45,753 nt of DNA from Craspedostauros australis. Its lineage: Eukaryota. The first letter of the stretch is position 1. Each line of letters begins with the position of its first letter. The translations under genes and the position numbers were made by a program. Where the stretch lies: positions 1 through 45,753 of the forward strand of contig JALAGF010005881.1 in assembly GCA_030167865.1 (NCBI GenBank), in the 5' to 3' direction. The notes beneath the pieces were generated by a model. It had not been told where the DNA came from. It was given only the letters and a program-made list of their open reading frames with translations, and ran no database searches. This document shows positions 17,101-45,753 of the stretch, piece by piece.

Positions 17101-20100
17101 CTCCACACTCCAACCTTCTCTAACCTCCACATTCCAATCACGCACGCCAATACTCATGGATGTCACCAATTCCACTACTACTCGTATACTCTGCAGCTCA
17201 ATGCGCACATTGAAAACATCAAAACGATCGCGGATGGCAACACAAACAAGCAAGTGTCGTCGCAAATATACATGCACCTGCTCCGAGACGTGCTGAACAA
17301 CTTCGAGAGCGACCCATCCGCTGTGCAAGATCGCCTACGGATGCTAGTTGCTGTCTACAGCGCTTTCCCAAAGCAAACGTCCGCGGAGGGCATCGCATCC
17401 ACCTTGCTCATCATGCTGACACAGCCACCTGAACAGCTGGCCATCACCGTTCCAAAAAACATGATCTCGAAGAGGGTGCGGTCTCTGCTTCTGCTCATCG
17501 CCAACAAGCTAGGCTCGGCCTTCGATGCGTTTCTTCTGCTAAGGGCTACCCGCAAATTCAAATTCAGTAACGGGGCACAGACCATGGCAACCGAAGAGGC
17601 CAGGGCACGCATGATGTACCAGTGCTGCGTTCTGTTGGTCCCAGCTAGTCCAGCAGCACCGGCCAAAACGGATGGCAGCACGTCAGTTGAACCCAACGAC
17701 GATCTTCGAGCCACCTTCCTCAGCGCACGCAAGCTCGTGCTCGGCTGGAGCTGCATGCACTACGCACCACTGTACTTTGCCAACACCGATTCGCAAAGCG
17801 GAGACAAGAATGGGAGCAACAGAAAACCTGGAGAAGAGGTTGGGGCGGGCGCTCCAGAATACGCCTCGATCTTGGATGGGATGGAACAGAAGAAGGTCCC
17901 TCCATGGCTCGCATTCATCCGCTGCATGCTCTTCCTGGAAAATCATGGCTCGGAGAGATTCGACGTCTTCTGGAAGACAACGACGTCCATACTCACCAAA
18001 ACATCTACGACGACGTCAACATCGCAACCTGGTGGGAACCCGTCTGACGAATGGGCAGCACAAGCCCAACGAATAAATGCATTCGTGGAGTACGGAACCG
18101 ATGTGGACGACGAGATGATTTTCATGATCATCAAGAGCGTCAAGCGACGCCGGATGACGAGCAAACCGGCCTTGCAGCTGTTGGAGCACTTGTTCCATGG
18201 ATGCAGATCGACGACGAAAGCACGGTTGCTGTTAGAAGATGACTCGCTGATTGAGGAATTGTACACGCTCGTCGAGTACAAGCCGCCCAAGGAGGTCCTC
18301 GCGTGCCTCTCAGGTCCTGCGAGGAATGAAAACGACATGGAAGTGGAAACAGAAACAGAAGAAAAGGGCAACTCTCTTGGTGCAAGAGCCGGCACCAGCA
18401 CAGAGCGAAAGCAAAAGGAGAAGCACAAGGGACAGGATCAAGACCAAGGCCAGGAGCAAGCGCCAATGCCTGAAGTCCCACGGTAAGCAACAAAATTGGA
18501 TGGAGAACATGTGATTGATACGTGCCAAGCGAAGAAATGCACACAGCTGAACTTGCACTCCCATCGTCGACCACTGCACTCGCAAATCATCTGTTTCTGT
18601 CACAACACTCACACCAATCCAAATTCGAACACTCACACACAAACATAAACACACCCGCCCACGCCCTGATTGTGTCTGCATACGTGCGCTATGCCCACCA
18701 ACCATTTCGTAGACTTGCCTATCCGGGCCTTTGGTGGCGTGCTACAACGCTGGCGTTGATCATGTGCGGAACGTCACCCGAAACTATTGGTCTCACTGCT
18801 TGGAATGAATTCCCGACCATCAAAGTCCTCATCAAGATGATCACATCGGACAGATATCGCTTCCCAACCATCGATTGCGACAAAGCGGCGCGAGACGAAA
18901 TGAAGAAAGGCGAGCAATCGATGAGAGACACGGTACGTTTCCGCGCCATGTCGCGCTGTGTCCTTCGCTATCAGAGTCACATGCGTCTCTTTTCTTCTTG
19001 AGCACACCTTTCTCTGTCTCCCCAGAGAGCTGGGTCCAATTCTCACTCACTGAATCTTCACTCACGTATGCTTGCCATTTCGTCTGTGATACACCTCATG
19101 TGCTCGCAACCATTTCCACGTACGATCTCGCTCATCTACACATCCACTGATCTCCTGCTTCTTCGTCTGCGTACCTGGTGGTATCGACCAACAACAAACA
19201 ATCCTCGCCGCCGCCATCGCCACCACCACAATTACTACTGCTACAACTGCAGGAAGCGTCGATTGCAGAAATGCTATTCTTCCCAAAGAAGGCAACACAG
19301 AAGAAGAGTAAAGCAGCCCAGCAGCAAACAAGATCAGGATCTCGAACATCGCGGCGGCAACGCGAACAGCGCGAGCGTCATCTGAGGGTGCAGCAAGAGC
19401 GCGAAGCGGCACAGGCACGCGACCGAGAACGACGGCGGAAAAAGATGATCAAGAATGCACAGAAATCAATAATGATACTGGACGCGCACAGCACGCCGCG
19501 CAAGCCACCACCACAGTCAGCAGATCTGCTGCTTTCCGTCAATGACATGTTCTCCGTCGCGAAGACCTTTCAAAAGTGCGATACTCCGGATTACATCCTG
19601 TCCACGATTGGAGGTACATCACGTGGTGCCATCGAACGTGCGTACGATTGGCTGATTCCCATCATCTCCGTCCTTCCCGAAACCATCGACCGGCTGCCGT
19701 CTTCGGCATCGTGCTTCTTGCTTCTGCGTGCCTACGGAACAGAAGGAGAGGAGAGAGCCCAGCTTCAGTCACTTGCTAAGCCTTTGCTCATCAATGTGCG
19801 ACAGTCGTTGATGGGTGAGTTCGGGGAGGCCAATGCAGCTCGATCATTCGATCTGTTGCTCTCGGATGTTGCCAGCCCAAAGTCCAACCGGCGGCGGTGC
19901 GCTCGGAGAGTCCTCTGTGATGCCATCGGGAGCGGCTCTGCTGAAACGATCGAACCAGCTACGAACGGCGGTGTCGATGCTATGAACAACGGTGAAACAA
20001 GTCAAGGGTCACGGGCAGATCATGATCCAACTCTGCCACAGCAGCGGCCCGAAGAGGAACAGGATCACCAGCAACCACTCACCCAAGCAAAGCCCGAGCC

Positions 20101-23100
20101 ACTGCCACCGTCATCGTCGTGGATGACGAACATTCTGCAAGCGAAGAACGCCGCATCGATTGTTGAAATTTCTATCAAGTACATGGTAAGCTCCACACAG
20201 TACTCATTCGGATGTGAACCAAAAGCGAGAATGAGCGCCCATCACTTGTCAGTGCAAGTGTGCAAGTGTTCGATGAGTATGACCCATTACTCTCCCGTTG
20301 CTACGGCCACTGCTGTTGCTGCGACACATGGAAATGCTACGCAGCGTTTGATGCCTTACCGCATTGCATGGCACTAGGTCGCGATGATCATACTACTCGT
20401 AGTACTCACAACTTCCAATTACGTCCGACACAACATTTCGCTCAATTTCCCCAACTTTCTCGGTGCCAAGACCATCGCTGCTGAGTATGAAAGAGGGAAG
20501 AATCTAAAGTCCTTGATCTTTGCATTGCGTGACCACATCGAATTCGCGCACGAGAATCATGTCAAAGGAAAATGGAGCTTTTCCAAGATCCTCGTCGCGA
20601 TGATCTCCACTCGACCCGATGCATCTGCCAGTGCGATGTCATCGTTCGTCGATCTTGAAGCTTTGGCCATCAGCACGATCCATGACGAACTTGTGAAGTA
20701 CTCCAAAGAAGGAGCCGATGAAGAAGATGATGATGCGGAATCTGTATGGATCACATTCTGCCAACATGCAGAGCACTCATCGGATGACTCAGCTCAGGCT
20801 CAGGTCCAGCCTCAAGAGGCGTCCGTGCAGACCAAAACTGCGCTTCCGCTGCAGTTGCTGCAATCTGCTTGCGTTCTGCTCAGTATCCAGAATGATGGAG
20901 CTGAAGATGGCGATGCCGTGGGCAACGACGATGGAACGAGCAAGGGTGACGCCGATGATGTTGCAGGTGATCCGATGGAAGTGGAAGGTTCCCGCATTGA
21001 CACAGGCACAGACAAAGACACTGCAAAGGCAACAAAGCTCGCAACGTCTACAACCCTGAACAGCATCGTGGATATGCTTCTGCACATTCCGGATGCTCAC
21101 GTCAGCACGAAAGACGATGCAGCGAAAGAAGACGACATGAGCAGCGATGGAACAATGTACGGGTTGGCAGGTGCAGAGTTTGCTGACTCGGAAAAGATCG
21201 CAGTCTCTGTGGAATCGGTAAGTTACGATTGAACAGATCAGTTGAAAACGGTCACCAACGCTTTGGAGGTTCTGGTCGCAATGCTCCCAATGTCCACCTA
21301 AAAATTCACCACGTCCAGCCACCATCGCACGACACCATGTGGCATGAAGACGCCCGTTGCATGTATATATCCCATTGAACGCACACGCATGCCATGCTAC
21401 ACTACTTTACTCCACGATTGTGCGTCCACTCATCCCGTAGCATATTGCGCTTGCCTTTTCAAATACCGCACATCCCTGCTTCGAATCAAACCACATATCG
21501 AACCACAACGCCAATGTCCATACTCGTCTCCAATCCACAATTTGCAATTCGCAGTGGGTGATGCTGGCGCGATCCGGGAGTGACTCGATCGCGCGCAGAG
21601 CAGCGATGGCTGCTCCAAGCGGATTTCTCCCTCGTCTACTGCTATGCTCGGGTCTTCCGAAGGGATCATTTTCAACCATGATCGACCGTCTTGCCAAGCT
21701 AGGTGACGAATCTGATGATCACGCCAAGATGTTCAACCAGCTCTTGGTGCCATCTGCCGTTAGCGAATGGGATATTGGTAGACTGGGCCAAAGACGCACC
21801 GTTTCGAGGCGATTGCTGGGGCGAGTAACTGCATACCTCAAGAAATACAACATGCAGACATCACCCGACAAGGACCATGTCCCAAACACCTTTCTGCTTT
21901 GGTTGCAGAAATCCTGCAACGATCCACACAAGGACAAAGGCCGCAGCAAAAGCAAGAACAGAGGAAAGAAAAGAAAGGTTGCAGATACCTCGATCCTCAA
22001 AGGGATCGCATCTGCCTCGGCTTTGTTCGCAGCTCTTGCTGATGAAGCAGATGTGAATGCAGCTGCAAACATCAAGGGTGACGGCGTCCTCGCCGACGAA
22101 AACGGGTCTGACATGACTGCATTCAAAGGAATTGCTCGAAGCCGACACGATCACGTTGCCGACGGTGCTATCCCCAGCGAAGATCTTCAAGCGCTGATTG
22201 CGGATGCGTTCGATGCTAACGAACCTGACCGCGTTGATTGGCTGTTGGAGCGGTGCACACATCAACGGGATGTTGCCTGGGTGACGATCGGTTCCAAAGC
22301 AGCACCATCAATAGCATCATTATCTGCAGCCACAGCAGCAACAACGGAAGCGAAGACGCCACGAGGCACTGTGGACACGACCACAATTGGCACGTTGATC
22401 CTTTCAAAGTACTTCGAGCTCAACCGCAAGCCCCAAGGGTTGGGCATGTGCATCTTGAAATGGATCCCGCGCCTCACAGCATCGGCAGGCTCCGAGGAAT
22501 TATGGAAGATCATGTTTGCCAAACGGAACTCCTTCGCCGTTCCGGTTTGGAACTCGCTTCTCGGCAAATGCGTGGTGCACTGGTCATCGTCGCATATCGC
22601 GGAATGCACAAACTGGATCTTGCGACAGCAGCAACGGCATCAAAGAAGGCTTTTCGAGGAGTACAACGTCGAGCGGATGGTGCGGTACTTGGTGAAGACA
22701 TCGAGCGCAGATTCGACCACTTTCGACATTATGTCGCAAGCAAGCCAGGATATTCGATGGTGCGATTCAGAGAGCGCTGTCGCGGGTGGGACAGCCCTGG
22801 CGATCGCAGCCATTGGGGCCGCCAAGAAGGAATCGTACATCCAGCAGATCGTCATGCGCAACGGCATCCCGGATGAGCTCACATTGATCCTGGTGGTGGC
22901 CAGATGCGGCCGGCCGCATGCAAGGTGCGTTGGGCAGGCTCTCGTTCGAGAAATCAACAGCACGGAAGATAGCGGCAGGCGCGGCATCTACCTCGCAATC
23001 GTTCTCCGGTTGTACGCGTACCTCCCATTCTCCCTGAACCTGAGAGACGCATCGCTGCGCGCGGTGCTGAAGGAAGCGGTGGAAGGTTACTCGGTCGAAT

Positions 23101-40795: not shown

Positions 40796-41518
40796 TCAGG
40801 AGGCCTCTTTCTTCTCCTGCTGCTTCCGCCGGATGCCATCCGTTACGCCTTTGACGCCTGCCAACGTGCTGAACCCGATGTACGCATAGAAGATGCCTTC
40901 ACCCACCTTGTTGGGACCCTTCTTCGCATCGATGACGACCCACTTGTTGCCGTCGTTCCAACGGATGCCATCCTGATCCTCGAAACCGAGCGTCGTCTTG
41001 ACAGAGTTGGCTGGCTCCCAAACGCCTTCGTGAATGCCATCGCCGACGCTGACGCGGTTGCCATCCAACACGAAGCCATCGAAGGCACCCTGCCGTAGGC
41101 CAAAGTCCTTGATCTCCTGCGGCGTGCAGCCGCGCAGCACCGTGTCGCCCTTGGGACCCACGGCAGTGCCGCTGTAGTGGAAGGTCTTGCCATCTGCGGC
41201 CACCTCGATCTTGCGTTCGCACAGCGGATGCAAGGGATCGGCATAGTTGTGATTGAGGACAGTCGCATCATCGGCTGCTGCGGCTGGCGAACTGGCGGCT
41301 CCCATCATGCAGGCTGCCAGGAATGCCGAAGCTGCGGCCCTGGTGCATGTCGCCACTATGGAATCCTTGGGTTGGTGTTGCTGCTTGTGCTTCTGATTCT
41401 GCATGGCGTTGCCTCGGCTTGATGCGCTGCCAGGAGTTGGCATCTGCAGTGCAGCACATGGAGACGTCAAGGCGACGACTGTCGCTGCACACATCAACTG
41501 AAATCCGACACACCTCAT
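40796..41518 (-). CDS. Hypothetical plastid (probably thylakoid-lumen-facing) protein with C-terminal TM helix
   Basis: Signal peptide (..CAA-LQ), transit-like segment, second hydrophobic stretch ending AAAA-DD, mature domain NYADPLHPLCERKI..IRWNDGNKW, then TM helix and basic tail. Confidence 0.8.
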   Translation of the reverse strand: MRCVGFQLMCAATVVALTSPCAALQMPTPGSASSRGNAMQNQKHKQQHQPKDSIVATCTRAAASAFLAACMMGAASSPAAAADDATVLNHNYADPLHPLCERKIEVAADGKTFHYSGTAVGPKGDTVLRGCTPQEIKDFGLRQGAFDGFVLDGNRVSVGDGIHEGVWEPANSVKTTLGFEDQDGIRWNDGNKWVVIDAKKGPNKVGEGIFYAYIGFSTLAGVKGVTDGIRRKQQEKKEAS

Positions 41519-41553
41519 CTTCTCAATCGATCGTAGAGTATTGGTATTGGCTT

Positions 41554-41578
41554 TGTATTGTATTGTATTGTATTGTAT
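41554..41578. repeat. (TGTAT)n microsatellite at the retroelement 5' junction
   Basis: Five consecutive TGTAT units. Confidence 0.85.
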
Positions 41579-41836
41579 AATATTTGGTACGAAGGCACAG
41601 TAATGTATCTTGGTTGAACCTATCCACACTTGCAAACGCGAAGAATGTATTGATTCCAGTCCCGCACGTGACCCGACTGACCGGCGTACGCAAAGTGCGC
41701 ACCTCGCGCCCACTTTCCTCCTAGAGCAGATCAAGACACTAGCAGGAGCCAAGACCGCAACTCCTCAGCTCAGCAATGTAATATCTCATAATATTAGCGA
41801 ACAACATTGATTCACACACTACTCGTCTTATTGACA
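41574..41836 (+). repeat. Putative 5' LTR (~263 bp, TG...CA)
   Basis: Inferred from TGT at 41574 and ACA ending at 41836 next to a PBS-position element. No second LTR is available for comparison, so boundaries are tentative. Confidence 0.55.
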
Positions 41837-41904
41837 GTTGTTCGCTAATAGCCAACGTTTGAAAATCTCGGTCACCAAGACCAGCATCACCAAAAATCAT
41901 CACC

Positions 41905-43068
41905 ATGGCCAACAGCCACGAGAAGATCCTCGCCACCTTTCCACAGGCAATCGTCGAACCCATCGTCGGGGTACCCACATACGAGTCCATCGCAGAACTC
42001 AATGTAGTCCTCAACGCCAATGCGGCCTCGGTGCACTGCCCCCTCGGAAACGGTCAGCTTGGATACCTGGTCCTCACCGTCTCCCGAGAGGTGTACCAAG
42101 AACATTCGGCGACAGCATTCGTCGTGCCGGTCAACCCAGGACCACACCCGAACATCCCGAACGCAGCCACTGCAGCCCAGATCAGCGCCGCCACCAGCAT
42201 CCACAAGGAACAGGAGCGCCTTTGGAGAGAGTACCGCGCGGTCGACAATGCCCTCAAGCAACAGCTTCTTGGCGCCATTGAAGACCAATACGTGCGAACT
42301 CTCCGCCACAACATCGTCGGCTACGCCAATGTCACGACACTCGAGCTGCTGACCCACCTGTACTCCACGTATGGCAAGATCACACCACAAGACCTCGACG
42401 AAAACGACAAGGCCATGAAGACCCCGTACGATCCGACGGCGCCGTTCGAAGTGCTCGTCGCCCAAATCGAATCTGCGCGCGATCTTGCGGCTGCTGCCAA
42501 AGCACCGTACGCAGATCACCAGCTCGTCACCACGGCGTACAACCTGGTGTTCCGAACACAAGCGTTCCCCGAAGCATGCCGCTCTTTCCGCGCTCTCAGT
42601 GCCGCCGACAAGACATGGGCTCGCTTCAAGAAGGACTTCGCTGCAGCTCACCAAGACCTCCGCGAGTCGCAAGCCACGGCGACGGGAGCCAACTTCCAAG
42701 GAGCCAATGCGGCAATCACCGCCACTGAAACCGCAGACGCGCTCGCCAACCTCGCATCCGCAACGGCCGCGGATCGCAGCACCGTAGCACAGCTCACCGA
42801 GAGCAACGCCAACCTCGTCAAGCAGTTGTCGGAGATCACGGCAATGGTGTCCCAGCTGCAAGCCAATGCGGCCACAAGCGGCGGCACAGGAAGCAAGAAG
42901 GGAGGGCGCAAGCACAAGCACAACTCCTACTGCTGGACACACGGGTACAAGGTGGGCGTCACGCACACCAGCGCAACGTGCATGAACCCAGCACCAGGAC
43001 ACAAGAAGGAGGCCACTCGCAACAACACGATGGGAGGATCCACCGAAGGCGCCCCGACGAACGCGTGA
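41905..43068 (+). CDS. gag: Gag with atypical C-x2-H-x7-H-x4-C knuckle
   Basis: 387 aa ORF with LGNGQLGYLVL, GYANVT..LLTHL..YG and YCWTHG..HTSATC, directly upstream of the protease. Confidence 0.9.
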   Translation: MANSHEKILATFPQAIVEPIVGVPTYESIAELNVVLNANAASVHCPLGNGQLGYLVLTVSREVYQEHSATAFVVPVNPGPHPNIPNAATAAQISAATSIHKEQERLWREYRAVDNALKQQLLGAIEDQYVRTLRHNIVGYANVTTLELLTHLYSTYGKITPQDLDENDKAMKTPYDPTAPFEVLVAQIESARDLAAAAKAPYADHQLVTTAYNLVFRTQAFPEACRSFRALSAADKTWARFKKDFAAAHQDLRESQATATGANFQGANAAITATETADALANLASATAADRSTVAQLTESNANLVKQLSEITAMVSQLQANAATSGGTGSKKGGRKHKHNSYCWTHGYKVGVTHTSATCMNPAPGHKKEATRNNTMGGSTEGAPTNA

Positions 43069-45720
43069 CAAGCGCGGCAGGACCACAGTAAGCAAGTAGC
43101 ACTCTCTGTTACTACTTCATCATCCTGTGCTCCTGCCCTCGCCATAGTTGACTCTGGTTGCACTAGTCATTTCCTACGGCCTGAAGATCCATGCATTGGC
43201 CAAACACCCGACGATAACCCATTATCGGTGTCGCTGCCCGACGGATCCAACATCCAATCTTCCCACCGAGCCACGGTCAGCATTGCCAATGTACCGCAGC
43301 ATGCGTGCACCGCGCGAGTTTTTCCACAACTTTCCAGCGCGGCGCTTGTGTCGGTGGGGCAACTGTGTGACCACGGCATGACAGTTGACTTCGACCAAGA
43401 ATCCGTGAGAATTCGAAAAAACGGAAACACGATTCATACCGGTTGTCGGCATCAAGTTGACGGCATGTATCGCATCGACATCCAGCCGCCGAAGCCCACA
43501 TCGCCAAAACTGGCCAATCACGTCCATCACACGTCAACCAAGATGGAACTGGCCAAATATTACCACCAGTGCTGCTTCAGCCCCGCGGTATCCACGTTCA
43601 CGGCTGCCATCAAGAAAGGATTCTTTTCATCTTGGCCCGGACTGACCGAGCAATTGGTGCGAAAATTCCTTCCACCCTCAACGGCAACTGCAGCTGGGCA
43701 CCTACGCCAACAGTACCAGAACACGCAGTCCACGCGCAGTCACTGTAACCACGTCACCCAGTCCACCAAGAATCCCACGGAACAACGCGAGATCTTCATG
43801 GATGTTTATCGGCCAACAGGCAAAATCTTCACCGATCAAACAGGCCGGTTCCCAGTGACGTCAAGCCGTGGATACCAGTACATCATGGTGTTGTACGACC
43901 ATGACTCCAACGCGATTCTTTCACGCCCACTACGCAGTCGGCACGCAACGGAACTCACGCGAGCGTGTGACGAACTTTTGACGGTTCTCCTTCGAAGCGG
44001 AATGACACCGCGATTCCACCGCCTCGACAACGAGGCGCCGAAAGAACTCAAGCACCTCATCGAGTCCAAAGGTATCCAGTACCAGCTTGTACCACCGGGC
44101 ATTCATCGGCGCAACGCAGCGGAGAGAGCCATCTCAACTTGGAAAGACCACTTCATCGCAGGACTGGCCACAGCCGACGAAGCATTTCCGCTGCATCTAT
44201 GGTGTCAACTCCTCCCCCAATGCGACATCACACTCAACCTGATGCGACCGTCGCGAGTCAACCCGCACATTTCGGCACATCATGCCCTCCACGGCAACTT
44301 CGACTTCAACGCAACGCCAATGGCACCACCAGGCACCAAGGCCGTCATCCATGACAAACCCAGCAAGCGAGCCACATGGGCACCACACGGATCAGCCGGA
44401 TGGTACATAGCACCAGCACTCGAACACTACCGGTGCTACAAGGTGTATTGCAACAAAACGAGGACGATCCGGATCACAGACACCATCGAACTGATGCCAA
44501 GCAAATGCGCCATGCCCACACCAACCAACGCAGAGATGGCCATCAAGGCGGCAGGCGACCTCGCCACTGCACTCACCAAGCCATGCGCACCACTCCAGTC
44601 CATTGGCGACGAGCAACTCGGAGCACTCCGGCAGCTCAGCGACATCTTCCAGCAGGCGCTCCCCGCGACGCCCACAGCACCACTTCCAAGGGTGCACACC
44701 GAGCCACCTCCGAGGGTGCTCACCACGGCCAGCAGTGACACCAGCAGCAAACGCGTCACCTTCGCGACACCGGCGCGCACACCTCCGAGGGTGCCCCAAA
44801 ACACACCGCAAGTCACAGACGACGAAGCCGACTCCGAACCAGAATCGGACGACGATGACGACGACGACGACGACGGCGACGACAGCGCCAACACGGGAGC
44901 ACCTCCCACAGGCCATACCAAGACGGCACCACGCACACGACTGCGCACCGGCACCATCCAGCGCAAGCAGTGGGCACGCGGAGCCACCACCGCAAACGCA
45001 GTCATCGACGAACGCACGGGGACAGCATACGAATACCGGCACCTCATCGCTGGCAAGGTTCATGGCCACACCCCGCAACAATGGTACACATCCTTCGCCA
45101 ACGAGATCGGGCGTCTCGCACAAGGCGTCGGGACCCGCATCCCAGCATCGGCGGCAACCAACACCATCTTCTTCGTCCCAAGATCGGCAGTGCCACGAGA
45201 TCGCACCGTCACATACGGCCGCATTGTCTGCGCCGTGCGACCGCAAAAAGCAGAAACACATCGCACGCGCCTCACCGTAGGAGGCAATCTCATCGATTAC
45301 CCCTTCGACGTGCACACACCCACCGCCGAACTCACCACTGCAAAATGTTTGTTCAACAGCGTCGTCTCCACACCGAATGCGAGGTTCATGACCATCGACA
45401 TCAAGGATTTTTATCTGAACACCGAAATGGACAGATACGAATACATGCGAATGCCGATGACAATGCTGCCACCAGAGATCGTCGAACAATACCAGCTTCG
45501 GAACTTGGAACACAACGGCAACGTCTACGTCGAAGTGCGAAAGGGCATGTACGGGCTGCCACAGGCGGGCAAAATCGCAAATGTGAAGCTCCAAAAACAC
45601 CTCGCGAAATTCGGGTACAGGCCAGTCCCACACACTCCAGGATTGTGGAAACACGACTGCAGACCCATCACATTAGAGGCCTATCGCATTTCACATTGGG
45701 AGTCCCACGGTACAAAATAA
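43069..45720 (+). CDS. pol: Pol (protease-integrase-partial RT), in frame with gag after a single TGA
   Basis: PR AIVDSGCTSHF. IN DDE: FTDQTGRFP, LDNEA, HRRNAAERAI. RT DIKDFYL and KGMYGLPQAG. RT similarity stops at about 45674. Confidence 0.92.
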   Translation, partial: QARQDHSKQVALSVTTSSSCAPALAIVDSGCTSHFLRPEDPCIGQTPDDNPLSVSLPDGSNIQSSHRATVSIANVPQHACTARVFPQLSSAALVSVGQLCDHGMTVDFDQESVRIRKNGNTIHTGCRHQVDGMYRIDIQPPKPTSPKLANHVHHTSTKMELAKYYHQCCFSPAVSTFTAAIKKGFFSSWPGLTEQLVRKFLPPSTATAAGHLRQQYQNTQSTRSHCNHVTQSTKNPTEQREIFMDVYRPTGKIFTDQTGRFPVTSSRGYQYIMVLYDHDSNAILSRPLRSRHATELTRACDELLTVLLRSGMTPRFHRLDNEAPKELKHLIESKGIQYQLVPPGIHRRNAAERAISTWKDHFIAGLATADEAFPLHLWCQLLPQCDITLNLMRPSRVNPHISAHHALHGNFDFNATPMAPPGTKAVIHDKPSKRATWAPHGSAGWYIAPALEHYRCYKVYCNKTRTIRITDTIELMPSKCAMPTPTNAEMAIKAAGDLATALTKPCAPLQSIGDEQLGALRQLSDIFQQALPATPTAPLPRVHTEPPPRVLTTASSDTSSKRVTFATPARTPPRVPQNTPQVTDDEADSEPESDDDDDDDDDGDDSANTGAPPTGHTKTAPRTRLRTGTIQRKQWARGATTANAVIDERTGTAYEYRHLIAGKVHGHTPQQWYTSFANEIGRLAQGVGTRIPASAATNTIFFVPRSAVPRDRTVTYGRIVCAVRPQKAETHRTRLTVGGNLIDYPFDVHTPTAELTTAKCLFNSVVSTPNARFMTIDIKDFYLNTEMDRYEYMRMPMTMLPPEIVEQYQLRNLEHNGNVYVEVRKGMYGLPQAGKIANVKLQKHLAKFGYRPVPHTPGLWKHDCRPITLEAYRISHWESHGTK

Positions 45721-45753
45721 CCTGATAATGACATTTTTAGAGGGGCAACATGC

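Follow-up and report, generated by a model that had tools for sequence, protein, structure and literature searches.

The genome assembly of Craspedostauros australis (GenBank assembly GCA_030167865.1) includes a contig (JALAGF010005881.1, positions 1 to 45,753 of the forward strand) that we analyzed over its full 45,753 nucleotides (nt) and hereafter call the window. Near its 3' end lies what we identify, by the order of its domains, as the 5' two-thirds of a Ty1/copia-type long terminal repeat (LTR) retrotransposon, in which gag and pol share one reading frame and are separated by a single TGA. A single stop codon, TGA or TAG, stands at this site across the lineage to which the element belongs; it is followed by a biased base at position +4, by a run of G about six bases farther on, and by a helix whose position is tied to the stop. 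We propose that the stop is read through in a programmed manner with the help of this downstream stem-loop, in the fashion of the alphaviruses, and that such readthrough probably sets the ratio of Gag to Gag-Pol. A first-pass annotation, made from the letters of the window, had suggested structure-stimulated readthrough as the determinant of this ratio, and the restriction of the stop to TGA and TAG, the leaky contexts at +4, and the stem-loop present in nearly all families lend that reading support.

The element lies on the plus strand. An ATG at position 41905 opens a frame that runs for 1,272 codons to position 45720, with the TGA at 43066-43068 as its sole stop. Upstream of this codon is the gag open reading frame (ORF; 41905..43065, 387 codons), the product of which has no match to any Pfam family. 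The C-terminal part of Gag contains a zinc-knuckle-like motif (C-x-T-H-G...H-x-S...C...G-H) followed by a GGS motif, and of the atlas clusters nearest to it, one is named "Gag protein family protein" and another has few recorded taxa, mostly Bacillariophyta. Downstream of the stop, the pol frame (43069..45675 by homology to relatives, and open to 45720) encodes protease, integrase, and reverse transcriptase (RT) in that order. The protease active-site codons GAC TCT GGT (D-S-G) are found at 43150..43158, 27 codons past the stop, and the equivalent D[ST]G[ACS][TS] motif sits 25 to 72 codons past the stop in 57 related loci. The peptide encoded between the TGA and the D-S-G of the window, QARQDHSKQVALSVTTSSSCAPALAIVDSG, includes no in-frame ATG, so that the earlier statement that the frame continues without a stop and without an ATG ahead of the protease holds true.

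The remainder of pol is recognized through sub-threshold Pfam matches, which follow one another as Pol_BBD (residues 26-103), rve (248-339), SH3_retrovirus (420-471), and RVT_2 (731-861); those besides RVT_2 are each weak taken singly. The RVT_2 (copia-type RT) match, which corresponds to positions 45259..45651, is partial and reaches 25.6 bits, short of the cut-off of 31.6, the domain being cut short in the window, whereas the complete pol of the related locus L049 scores 32.2 bits and passes. The placement of the integrase ahead of the RT is the order characteristic of the Ty1/copia type. Over its length the window pol can also be aligned to long polyproteins found in public metagenomes, and the lineage is common in aquatic metagenomes and probably carried by diatoms.

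Relatives were gathered by scanning contigs with a pol alignment, for which the smaller of two alignments (A2) was used, the larger (A1) being too divergent. This produced 80 metagenome loci at 30-56% identity, which are relatives and not true sister copies; scans of genome contigs and viral contigs found no relative. The gag-pol junction was located from the protease side in 57 loci, from the gag side in 7 more, and by way of a motif deeper in pol in a further 3. Across the 80 loci, 67 have a single in-frame stop at the junction, 5 are degenerate or frame-shifted, 8 lack the junction, and none has an uninterrupted frame. Where the gag motif C.[TS]HG could be paired with the protease motif, the two lie in the same frame with exactly one stop between them in 38 of 41 pairs and in different frames in the other 3. 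When the window is added to the 67 loci, the resulting 68 junctions are open upstream for 100 codons or more, or as far as the contig end, in 62 cases, and downstream for 150 codons or more, or as far as the end, in 65. Several stops are seen in L015, L053, and L076, and gag and pol lie in different frames in L038 and L057. The latter two belong to one family and reflect a degenerate indel or else a relative that uses frameshifting inside a readthrough lineage. For the element itself, frameshifting was considered and rejected, as gag and pol share one frame. A separate observation concerns L030 and L071, each of which has two gag zinc-knuckle motifs several kilobases apart, a layout suggestive of tandem or nested insertions; of the two copies in L071, one is degenerate and the other intact.

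The protein databases offer a second view of the same site. Gag-only homologues of near-query length number 274, and among the 120 matches listed, lengths range from 314 to 472 amino acids (aa). Of these listed proteins, 87 carry the C.[TS]HG motif, and 83 of the 87 end 40 to 48 residues past its cysteine, a distance that is 45 residues in the window Gag; most of the remaining ones have a CWSCG variant and end just after GGSxxNK. A search without a length filter against a library of 50%-identity representatives returned 6,534 Gag matches at E<=0.001, and the best 150 of these measure 209-518 aa, with none fused to Pol. Because relatives have a single stop at the same site and Gag-only homologues end there, we regard the TGA as almost certainly a programmed, lineage-wide feature rather than a lesion of the window copy. 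The first-pass annotation had likewise taken the TGA not to be disabling, and it had named a sense codon at this position in sister copies as a finding that would speak against programmed readthrough. Such a codon was looked for in the related loci, which at 30-56% identity are not true sister copies, and was not found.

To examine the sequence around the stop, we grouped the 68 junctions into 48 clusters (with less than 20% difference over 100 nt within a cluster). By cluster, the stop is TGA in 33 and TAG in 15, and TAA does not occur. The base that follows differs between the two stops: C occupies +4 after TGA in 19 of 33 clusters, as it does in the window (UGA-C), and G follows TAG in 14 of 15. 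After about six variable bases a run of G begins, the first GGG or GGA starting 4 to 9 nt past the stop in 34 of the 48 clusters, as compared with 7.7% at control codons. A G stands at +9 in 26 of 33 TGA clusters and 15 of 15 TAG clusters (41 of 48 in total) against a background G frequency of 0.19. All 15 TAG clusters have GGGA at +7 to +10, mostly continuing as CGGC. No base preference was seen just before the stop in the 48 clusters.

In the window, the C at +4 opens a 7-nt spacer, CAAGCGC (43069..43075), past which the sequence can fold into an extended hairpin of 62 nt (43076..43137) that occupies the linker from the stop to the protease. Three helices make up its 18 main base pairs: GGCAGGA (43076-82) with TCCTGCC (43131-37), CACAG (43084-88) with CTGTG (43125-29), and AAGTAG (43094-99) with CTACTT (43112-17), of 7, 5, and 6 pairs, respectively. 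The positions given earlier for the TGA, the C, the spacer, and the paired arms all agree with a direct reading of the sequence, and folding of 43060-43150 with RNAfold, as the first-pass annotation had recommended, returns exactly this hairpin as both the minimum free energy (MFE) and the centroid structure, with a further 2-bp apical helix in the MFE form. Its energy of -29.6 kcal/mol corresponds to a z-score of -3.14 and was matched by 1 of 200 dinucleotide shuffles. The folding tools used here cannot predict pseudoknots.

We then asked how the helix is placed relative to the stop, taking at each locus the best helix with its 5' arm 4-12 nt past the stop and its partner 30-115 nt away, and using other in-frame positions of the same locus as controls. 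In 16 of 46 clusters (binomial p = 3.6e-10) the helix anchored at the true stop is among the highest-ranking 5%, and in 42 of 46 it lies in the upper half; in the window its score is 30, a value reached at 0.2% of the 1,209 other in-frame positions of the element (rank 0.002). When the anchor is displaced to 14 other positions, from -90 to +126 nt, the mean helix score falls to 10.3-15.8, as against 19.6 at the true stop, and the true stop is the maximum of the 15 anchors in 26 of 48 clusters. Shuffle-based folding of a fixed window from the stop points the same way. Among 20 of the 33 TGA representatives, picked before folding, z is below 0 in 18 (mean -1.76; z <= -2 in 8), and among all 15 TAG representatives it is below 0 in 14 (mean -2.17; z <= -2 in 6). 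In nearly all of the folded representatives, the MFE structure is one extended stem-loop that opens a few bases past the stop and ends right ahead of the protease motif.

Families were also compared for covariation in the stem. The nearest relative at the junction, L020, reads TGA-CAATTCC-GGCAAGAU...AUCUUGCC, the counterpart in the window being TGA-CAAGCGC-GGCAGGA...TCCTGCC. At base pair 5 of the stem, L020 has A-U and the window has G-C, both sides having changed, and the loops of the two are unrelated in sequence and length; this comparison is one of two separate folds, as MAFFT left their 3' arms unaligned, likewise in the mixed group A4. Other families have arms that are unrelated in sequence and nevertheless complementary, such as GGGAGAGTAGACGA/TCGTCTACTTTATCC, GGGAACAAA/TTTGTTCCC, GCTAGGAACTAAA/TTTAGTTCCTAGC, and GGCGTCCA/TGGACGCC. 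In a group of 10 alignable loci characterized by GGAAC, 75% of the cells are paired, as against 34-49% with the partners slid by 1-3 columns, and changes on both sides are seen in 6 of 12 pairs, a number reached in 5 of 500 shuffles. The first-pass annotation had proposed that related elements be checked for TGA-CAR and for covariation of the stem. In the related loci the single stop is conserved, the paired change at base pair 5 is present in L020, and CAA directly after the stop is shared by the window, L020, L024, and L035.

The TAG clusters (L021, L023, L025, L029, L033, L034, L037, L039, L041, L042, L045, L047, L050, L073, and L079) have a pattern of their own, sharing UAG, usually a G, a purine-rich hexamer, and then GGGA. 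Many of them also have a conserved downstream element, GC(Y)(Y)(S)CTCCCCGCC, which encodes A-S/R-S-P-P right before the protease. The GGGA region and this GC-type element pair as the closing stem of a 55-110-nt structure, and the constraint on them could be one of RNA or of peptide.

Readthrough as the means by which the stop is bypassed, the stem as its stimulator, and the efficiency of the process are what we infer from these patterns. In the mechanism envisaged, most ribosomes would stop at the UGA and yield Gag, and a minority would decode it by a near-cognate tRNA and yield a Gag-Pol fusion that includes the protease, integrase, and RT. Readthrough by a minority of ribosomes would provide the high Gag:Pol ratio that such elements need. 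The likely stimulators are the 3' C of the UGA-C context and the extended stem-loop starting 7 nt past the stop, which would meet the ribosomal mRNA entrance when the stop is in the A site.

Several observations weigh against stem-assisted readthrough. The plain MFE of the 100 nt past the stop differs little from that of other windows of the same locus (mean z of -0.35, p = 0.007) and ranks at or below 0.05 in just 1 of 46 clusters; for the window junction, 10.5% of 124 other windows of the element have an MFE at least as low. Within-cluster divergence profiles gave no clear dip past the stop, the clusters being too similar or too few. The stem of the window is common to L020 only, and the window departs from the clade consensus in having CGG in place of GGG at +7 to +9, then CAGGA. 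RNAalifold recovered just the 6-bp near-invariant core of the GGAAC group, and since this core is nearly invariant and both arms are coding, part of the stem signal in that group could stem from protein constraint or shared descent. Moreover, five long proteins run on across the junction. Three of them (P0005, P0006, and P0285) have W at the exact position of the stop, 6 residues past GGS, and in the other two (P0002 and P0003) an L follows ...KE, the point at which Gag-only proteins terminate. These residues could reflect TGA or TAG translated by a gene caller under another code, or they could be true sense codons one base off the stop; no close match of the five to any of the related loci was found. 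Finally, the signal in the window copy may be a fossil, because homology to the relatives is lost at ...RPIT near 45675, inside the RT and ahead of its catalytic motif, and because no LTR pair is seen. No second copy of the element was found in the window either, and a repeat search of the window detected no direct repeat of at least 40 nt.

Some of these points would fit a programmed stop that is read through by virtue of its local context alone, be it UGA-C or the CAA at +4 to +6, with the hairpin serving another role such as packaging or dimerization of genomic RNA, ribosome pausing, or mere linker coding. The unexceptional plain folding energy, the coding nature of both stem arms, the scarcely varying core helix of the GGAAC group, and the CAA shared by the window and three relatives are all in keeping with it. 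Nevertheless, we consider it unlikely: the position of the helix is tied to the stop, with the score peaking solely at zero displacement, arms unrelated in sequence remain complementary across families, a compensatory change is present in L020, and the linker peptide itself is poorly conserved.

Quite unlikely, in our estimation, is a noncanonical bypass of the conserved stop of the kind proposed for Tca2, a copia-type element of Candida albicans, whether through an internal promoter or internal initiation for pol, reinitiation, or a trans-acting factor. Tca2, the nearest precedent among copia elements and the only one of this build to have been studied, has a gag-UGA-pol arrangement with an 8-nt spacer and a pseudoknot, and as described for it, the local sequence gave no readthrough in a Saccharomyces cerevisiae reporter, the junction held a minor promoter, and the authors proposed a noncanonical bypass (PMC2194720). 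This is a serious caveat to readthrough in the present lineage as well, and an in-frame ATG does occur within 25 codons past the stop in 13 of 48 clusters. In the remaining 35 clusters there is none within that distance, however, and in the window there is none before the protease site. The common frame of gag and pol in 38 of 41 motif pairs would not be needed for independent initiation, and the leaky bases at +4 are enriched. Like the window element, Tca2 is of the Ty1/copia type and has an in-frame UGA between gag and pol with a structured region past a short spacer, but it is a single fungal element, whereas here the arrangement is kept in 48 clusters and thousands of Gag homologues. Such conservation argues for a function, by a mechanism that is putative in the window lineage as it is in Tca2.

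Expression of pol from a spliced RNA that removes the stop is very improbable. A GTAAGC resembling a 5' splice site is present at 43088-43093, but it lies downstream of the stop, which an intron beginning at that site would leave in place. Pairing the sole GT at the stop (43065-66) with nearby AGs would yield introns of 24-35 nt, or else an 83-nt intron by which the frame would be shifted and part of the protease motif lost. Nor does the conserved stop-N6-GGG pattern correspond to a splice consensus.

Still less probable is that the TGA arose as a disabling mutation in a copy that is truncated and dead, an idea suggested by the loss of homology inside the RT near 45675 and by the missing LTR pair. 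The TGA is the only stop in 1,272 codons, its site is that of the single stop in 67 of the 80 relatives, and Gag-only homologues end equally far from the zinc-knuckle motif. That the TGA is read as sense, through a variant nuclear code or as selenocysteine, is scarcely credible even with three fused homologues having W at the site, since TGA is an ordinary stop in this host (of 20 long ORFs in the window, 10 are closed by TAG, 5 by TAA, and 5 by TGA, with TGA closing four host ORFs), since Gag-only ORFs are the rule, and since TAG at the homologous site in 15 of 48 clusters departs from the UGA that, with a selenocysteine insertion sequence (SECIS) element, a selenocysteine site specifically has, no search for such an element having been made.

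Among known systems, the closest parallel to the proposed stem-assisted readthrough is the alphavirus type, also found in furoviruses, tobraviruses, and coltiviruses, with UGA-C(GG/UA) at the stop (PMC3159437). In alphaviruses, UGA-C, a spacer of 7-9 nt, and an extended stem-loop are described as raising readthrough up to ~10-fold, and the arrangement is reported in several plant virus genera too; the motif of this class is given as xxA-stop-CGx-xxx-xxG, with a conserved G at +9 (PMC3159437, Firth et al. 2011). The earlier appeal to alphaviruses as a precedent for UGA-C with 3' structure agrees with this account (PMC3159437). Two marks of the class, UGA followed by C and a stem-loop 7-9 nt past the stop, are present in the window, where the same UGA-C precedes a 7-nt spacer and a long imperfect stem-loop. 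The G at +9 is likewise common to the two, and conservation in relatives with some compensatory changes may be as well (PMC3159437). The present case differs in that the element is a DNA-integrated LTR retrotransposon whose product is Gag-Pol rather than a replicase or a coat extension, that the stem of ~45-110 nt fills the entire linker between Gag and protease, that sister families use UAG-G with the same architecture, and that the arrangement is known here from sequence alone.

The gag-pol junction of murine leukemia virus (MuLV) provides a second parallel, with UAG-G, an 8-nt purine-rich spacer, and a pseudoknot in the descriptions cited (PMC3159437, PMC2194720). The purpose, a set ratio of Gag to Gag-Pol, the single frame of gag and pol, and a spacer that leads into a G-rich 5' arm are shared with the window element, and the TAG families come closer still, with UAG-G, a spacer rich in purines, and next GGGACGGC. 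The window itself falls outside the MuLV class, as it has UGA-C, a 7-nt spacer, and a predicted extended hairpin; the TAG families too fold as extended hairpins, by methods that in both cases are blind to pseudoknots.

The first-pass annotation had also pointed to SIRE1-type copia elements and to a partial match of the bases after the stop to CARYYA. SIRE1 is indeed a copia-type element with stop suppression, but according to the cited accounts the suppressed stop lies between pol and an env-like ORF (PMC2829016; PMC2194720). As for the match, the window shares a CAA after the stop with this type, which is that of tobacco mosaic virus (TMV), but its CAAGCG agrees with the CAR half of CAR-YYA and departs from the YYA half, which places it outside the TMV type. 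A further comparison is with the CoDi copia elements of diatoms, which have the same protease-integrase-RT order (PMC2806351, PMC2774666). The Gag cluster with mostly Bacillariophyta among its taxa is a lead towards these elements, not a phylogenetic placement. In the portions of the CoDi accounts cited here (Maumus et al. 2009, PMC2806351; Llorens et al. 2009, PMC2774666), readthrough signals are not analyzed.

Readthrough at the MuLV gag-pol junction, structure-assisted readthrough at UGA-C in RNA viruses, and UGA with structure in the copia element Tca2 are already established; what would be added here is a cassette that a very large lineage has kept and that exists in a UGA-C as well as a UAG-G form. 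In the limited collection of literature searched, no description of a readthrough signal in diatom copia elements was found. A wider proposal, on which our judgment is evenly balanced, is that a copia lineage, probably of diatoms, possesses a modular cassette, (UGA-C or UAG-G)-N6-GGG-extended stem-loop, that fills the whole Gag-protease linker, and that this linker is primarily an RNA element rather than a peptide. The size of this putative lineage is gauged by the 6,534 Gag homologues reported above for the library of 50%-identity representatives. Were the proposal true, the Ty1/copia superfamily would have its first widespread system of structure-stimulated gag-pol readthrough, with alphavirus-like and MuLV-like stop contexts that are swappable on one structural scaffold. 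The main reading, stem-assisted readthrough, would if right explain how Gag:Pol is set in a very abundant group of algal retrotransposons. The 48 clusters would then add naturally varied stop-spacer-stem cassettes to the few readthrough stimulators studied so far, and could furnish a compact, tunable readthrough element for diatom biology. There is a consequence for annotation too, in that many of the ~390-aa ORFs that stand alone in aquatic metagenomes under the label "hypothetical protein" would be Gag, with the next ORF being Pol made as a fusion. As the mechanism is of a known kind, it would extend the record and overturn nothing.

Certain other features of the window merit mention. The last 77 bases (45676-45753), within which the frame closes at 45720, are unrelated to the relatives, and the junction they form with pol marks either a copy that was truncated or interrupted, or a break of the assembly within a repeat. 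Elsewhere, at 19151-21232, two long open frames of 408 and 284 codons share one reading frame with a single TAG (20375-20377) between them, followed by GT. No Pfam family was found for either frame, and the region is most likely a host gene with an intron starting at TAG|GT rather than a recoding site. At the 5' side of the element, a (TTGTA)5 microsatellite (41553-41577) lies between a minus-strand host ORF (40796-41764) and the element, near the expected 5' boundary, where the interval available for a 5' LTR is short. A perfect inverted repeat of 12-14 bp, TTAGCGAACAAC / GTTGTTCGCTAA (41792-41805 / 41837-41850), is situated in the presumed leader, ~55-110 nt ahead of the gag ATG, and could form a leader hairpin with a role in priming, packaging, or dimerization. 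Within pol, nine Asp codons stand in a row at 44848-44874 in an acidic tract, SEPESDDDDDDDDDGDDS, that belongs to the poorly conserved linker between the integrase and the RT, at which the relatives carry unrelated sequence.

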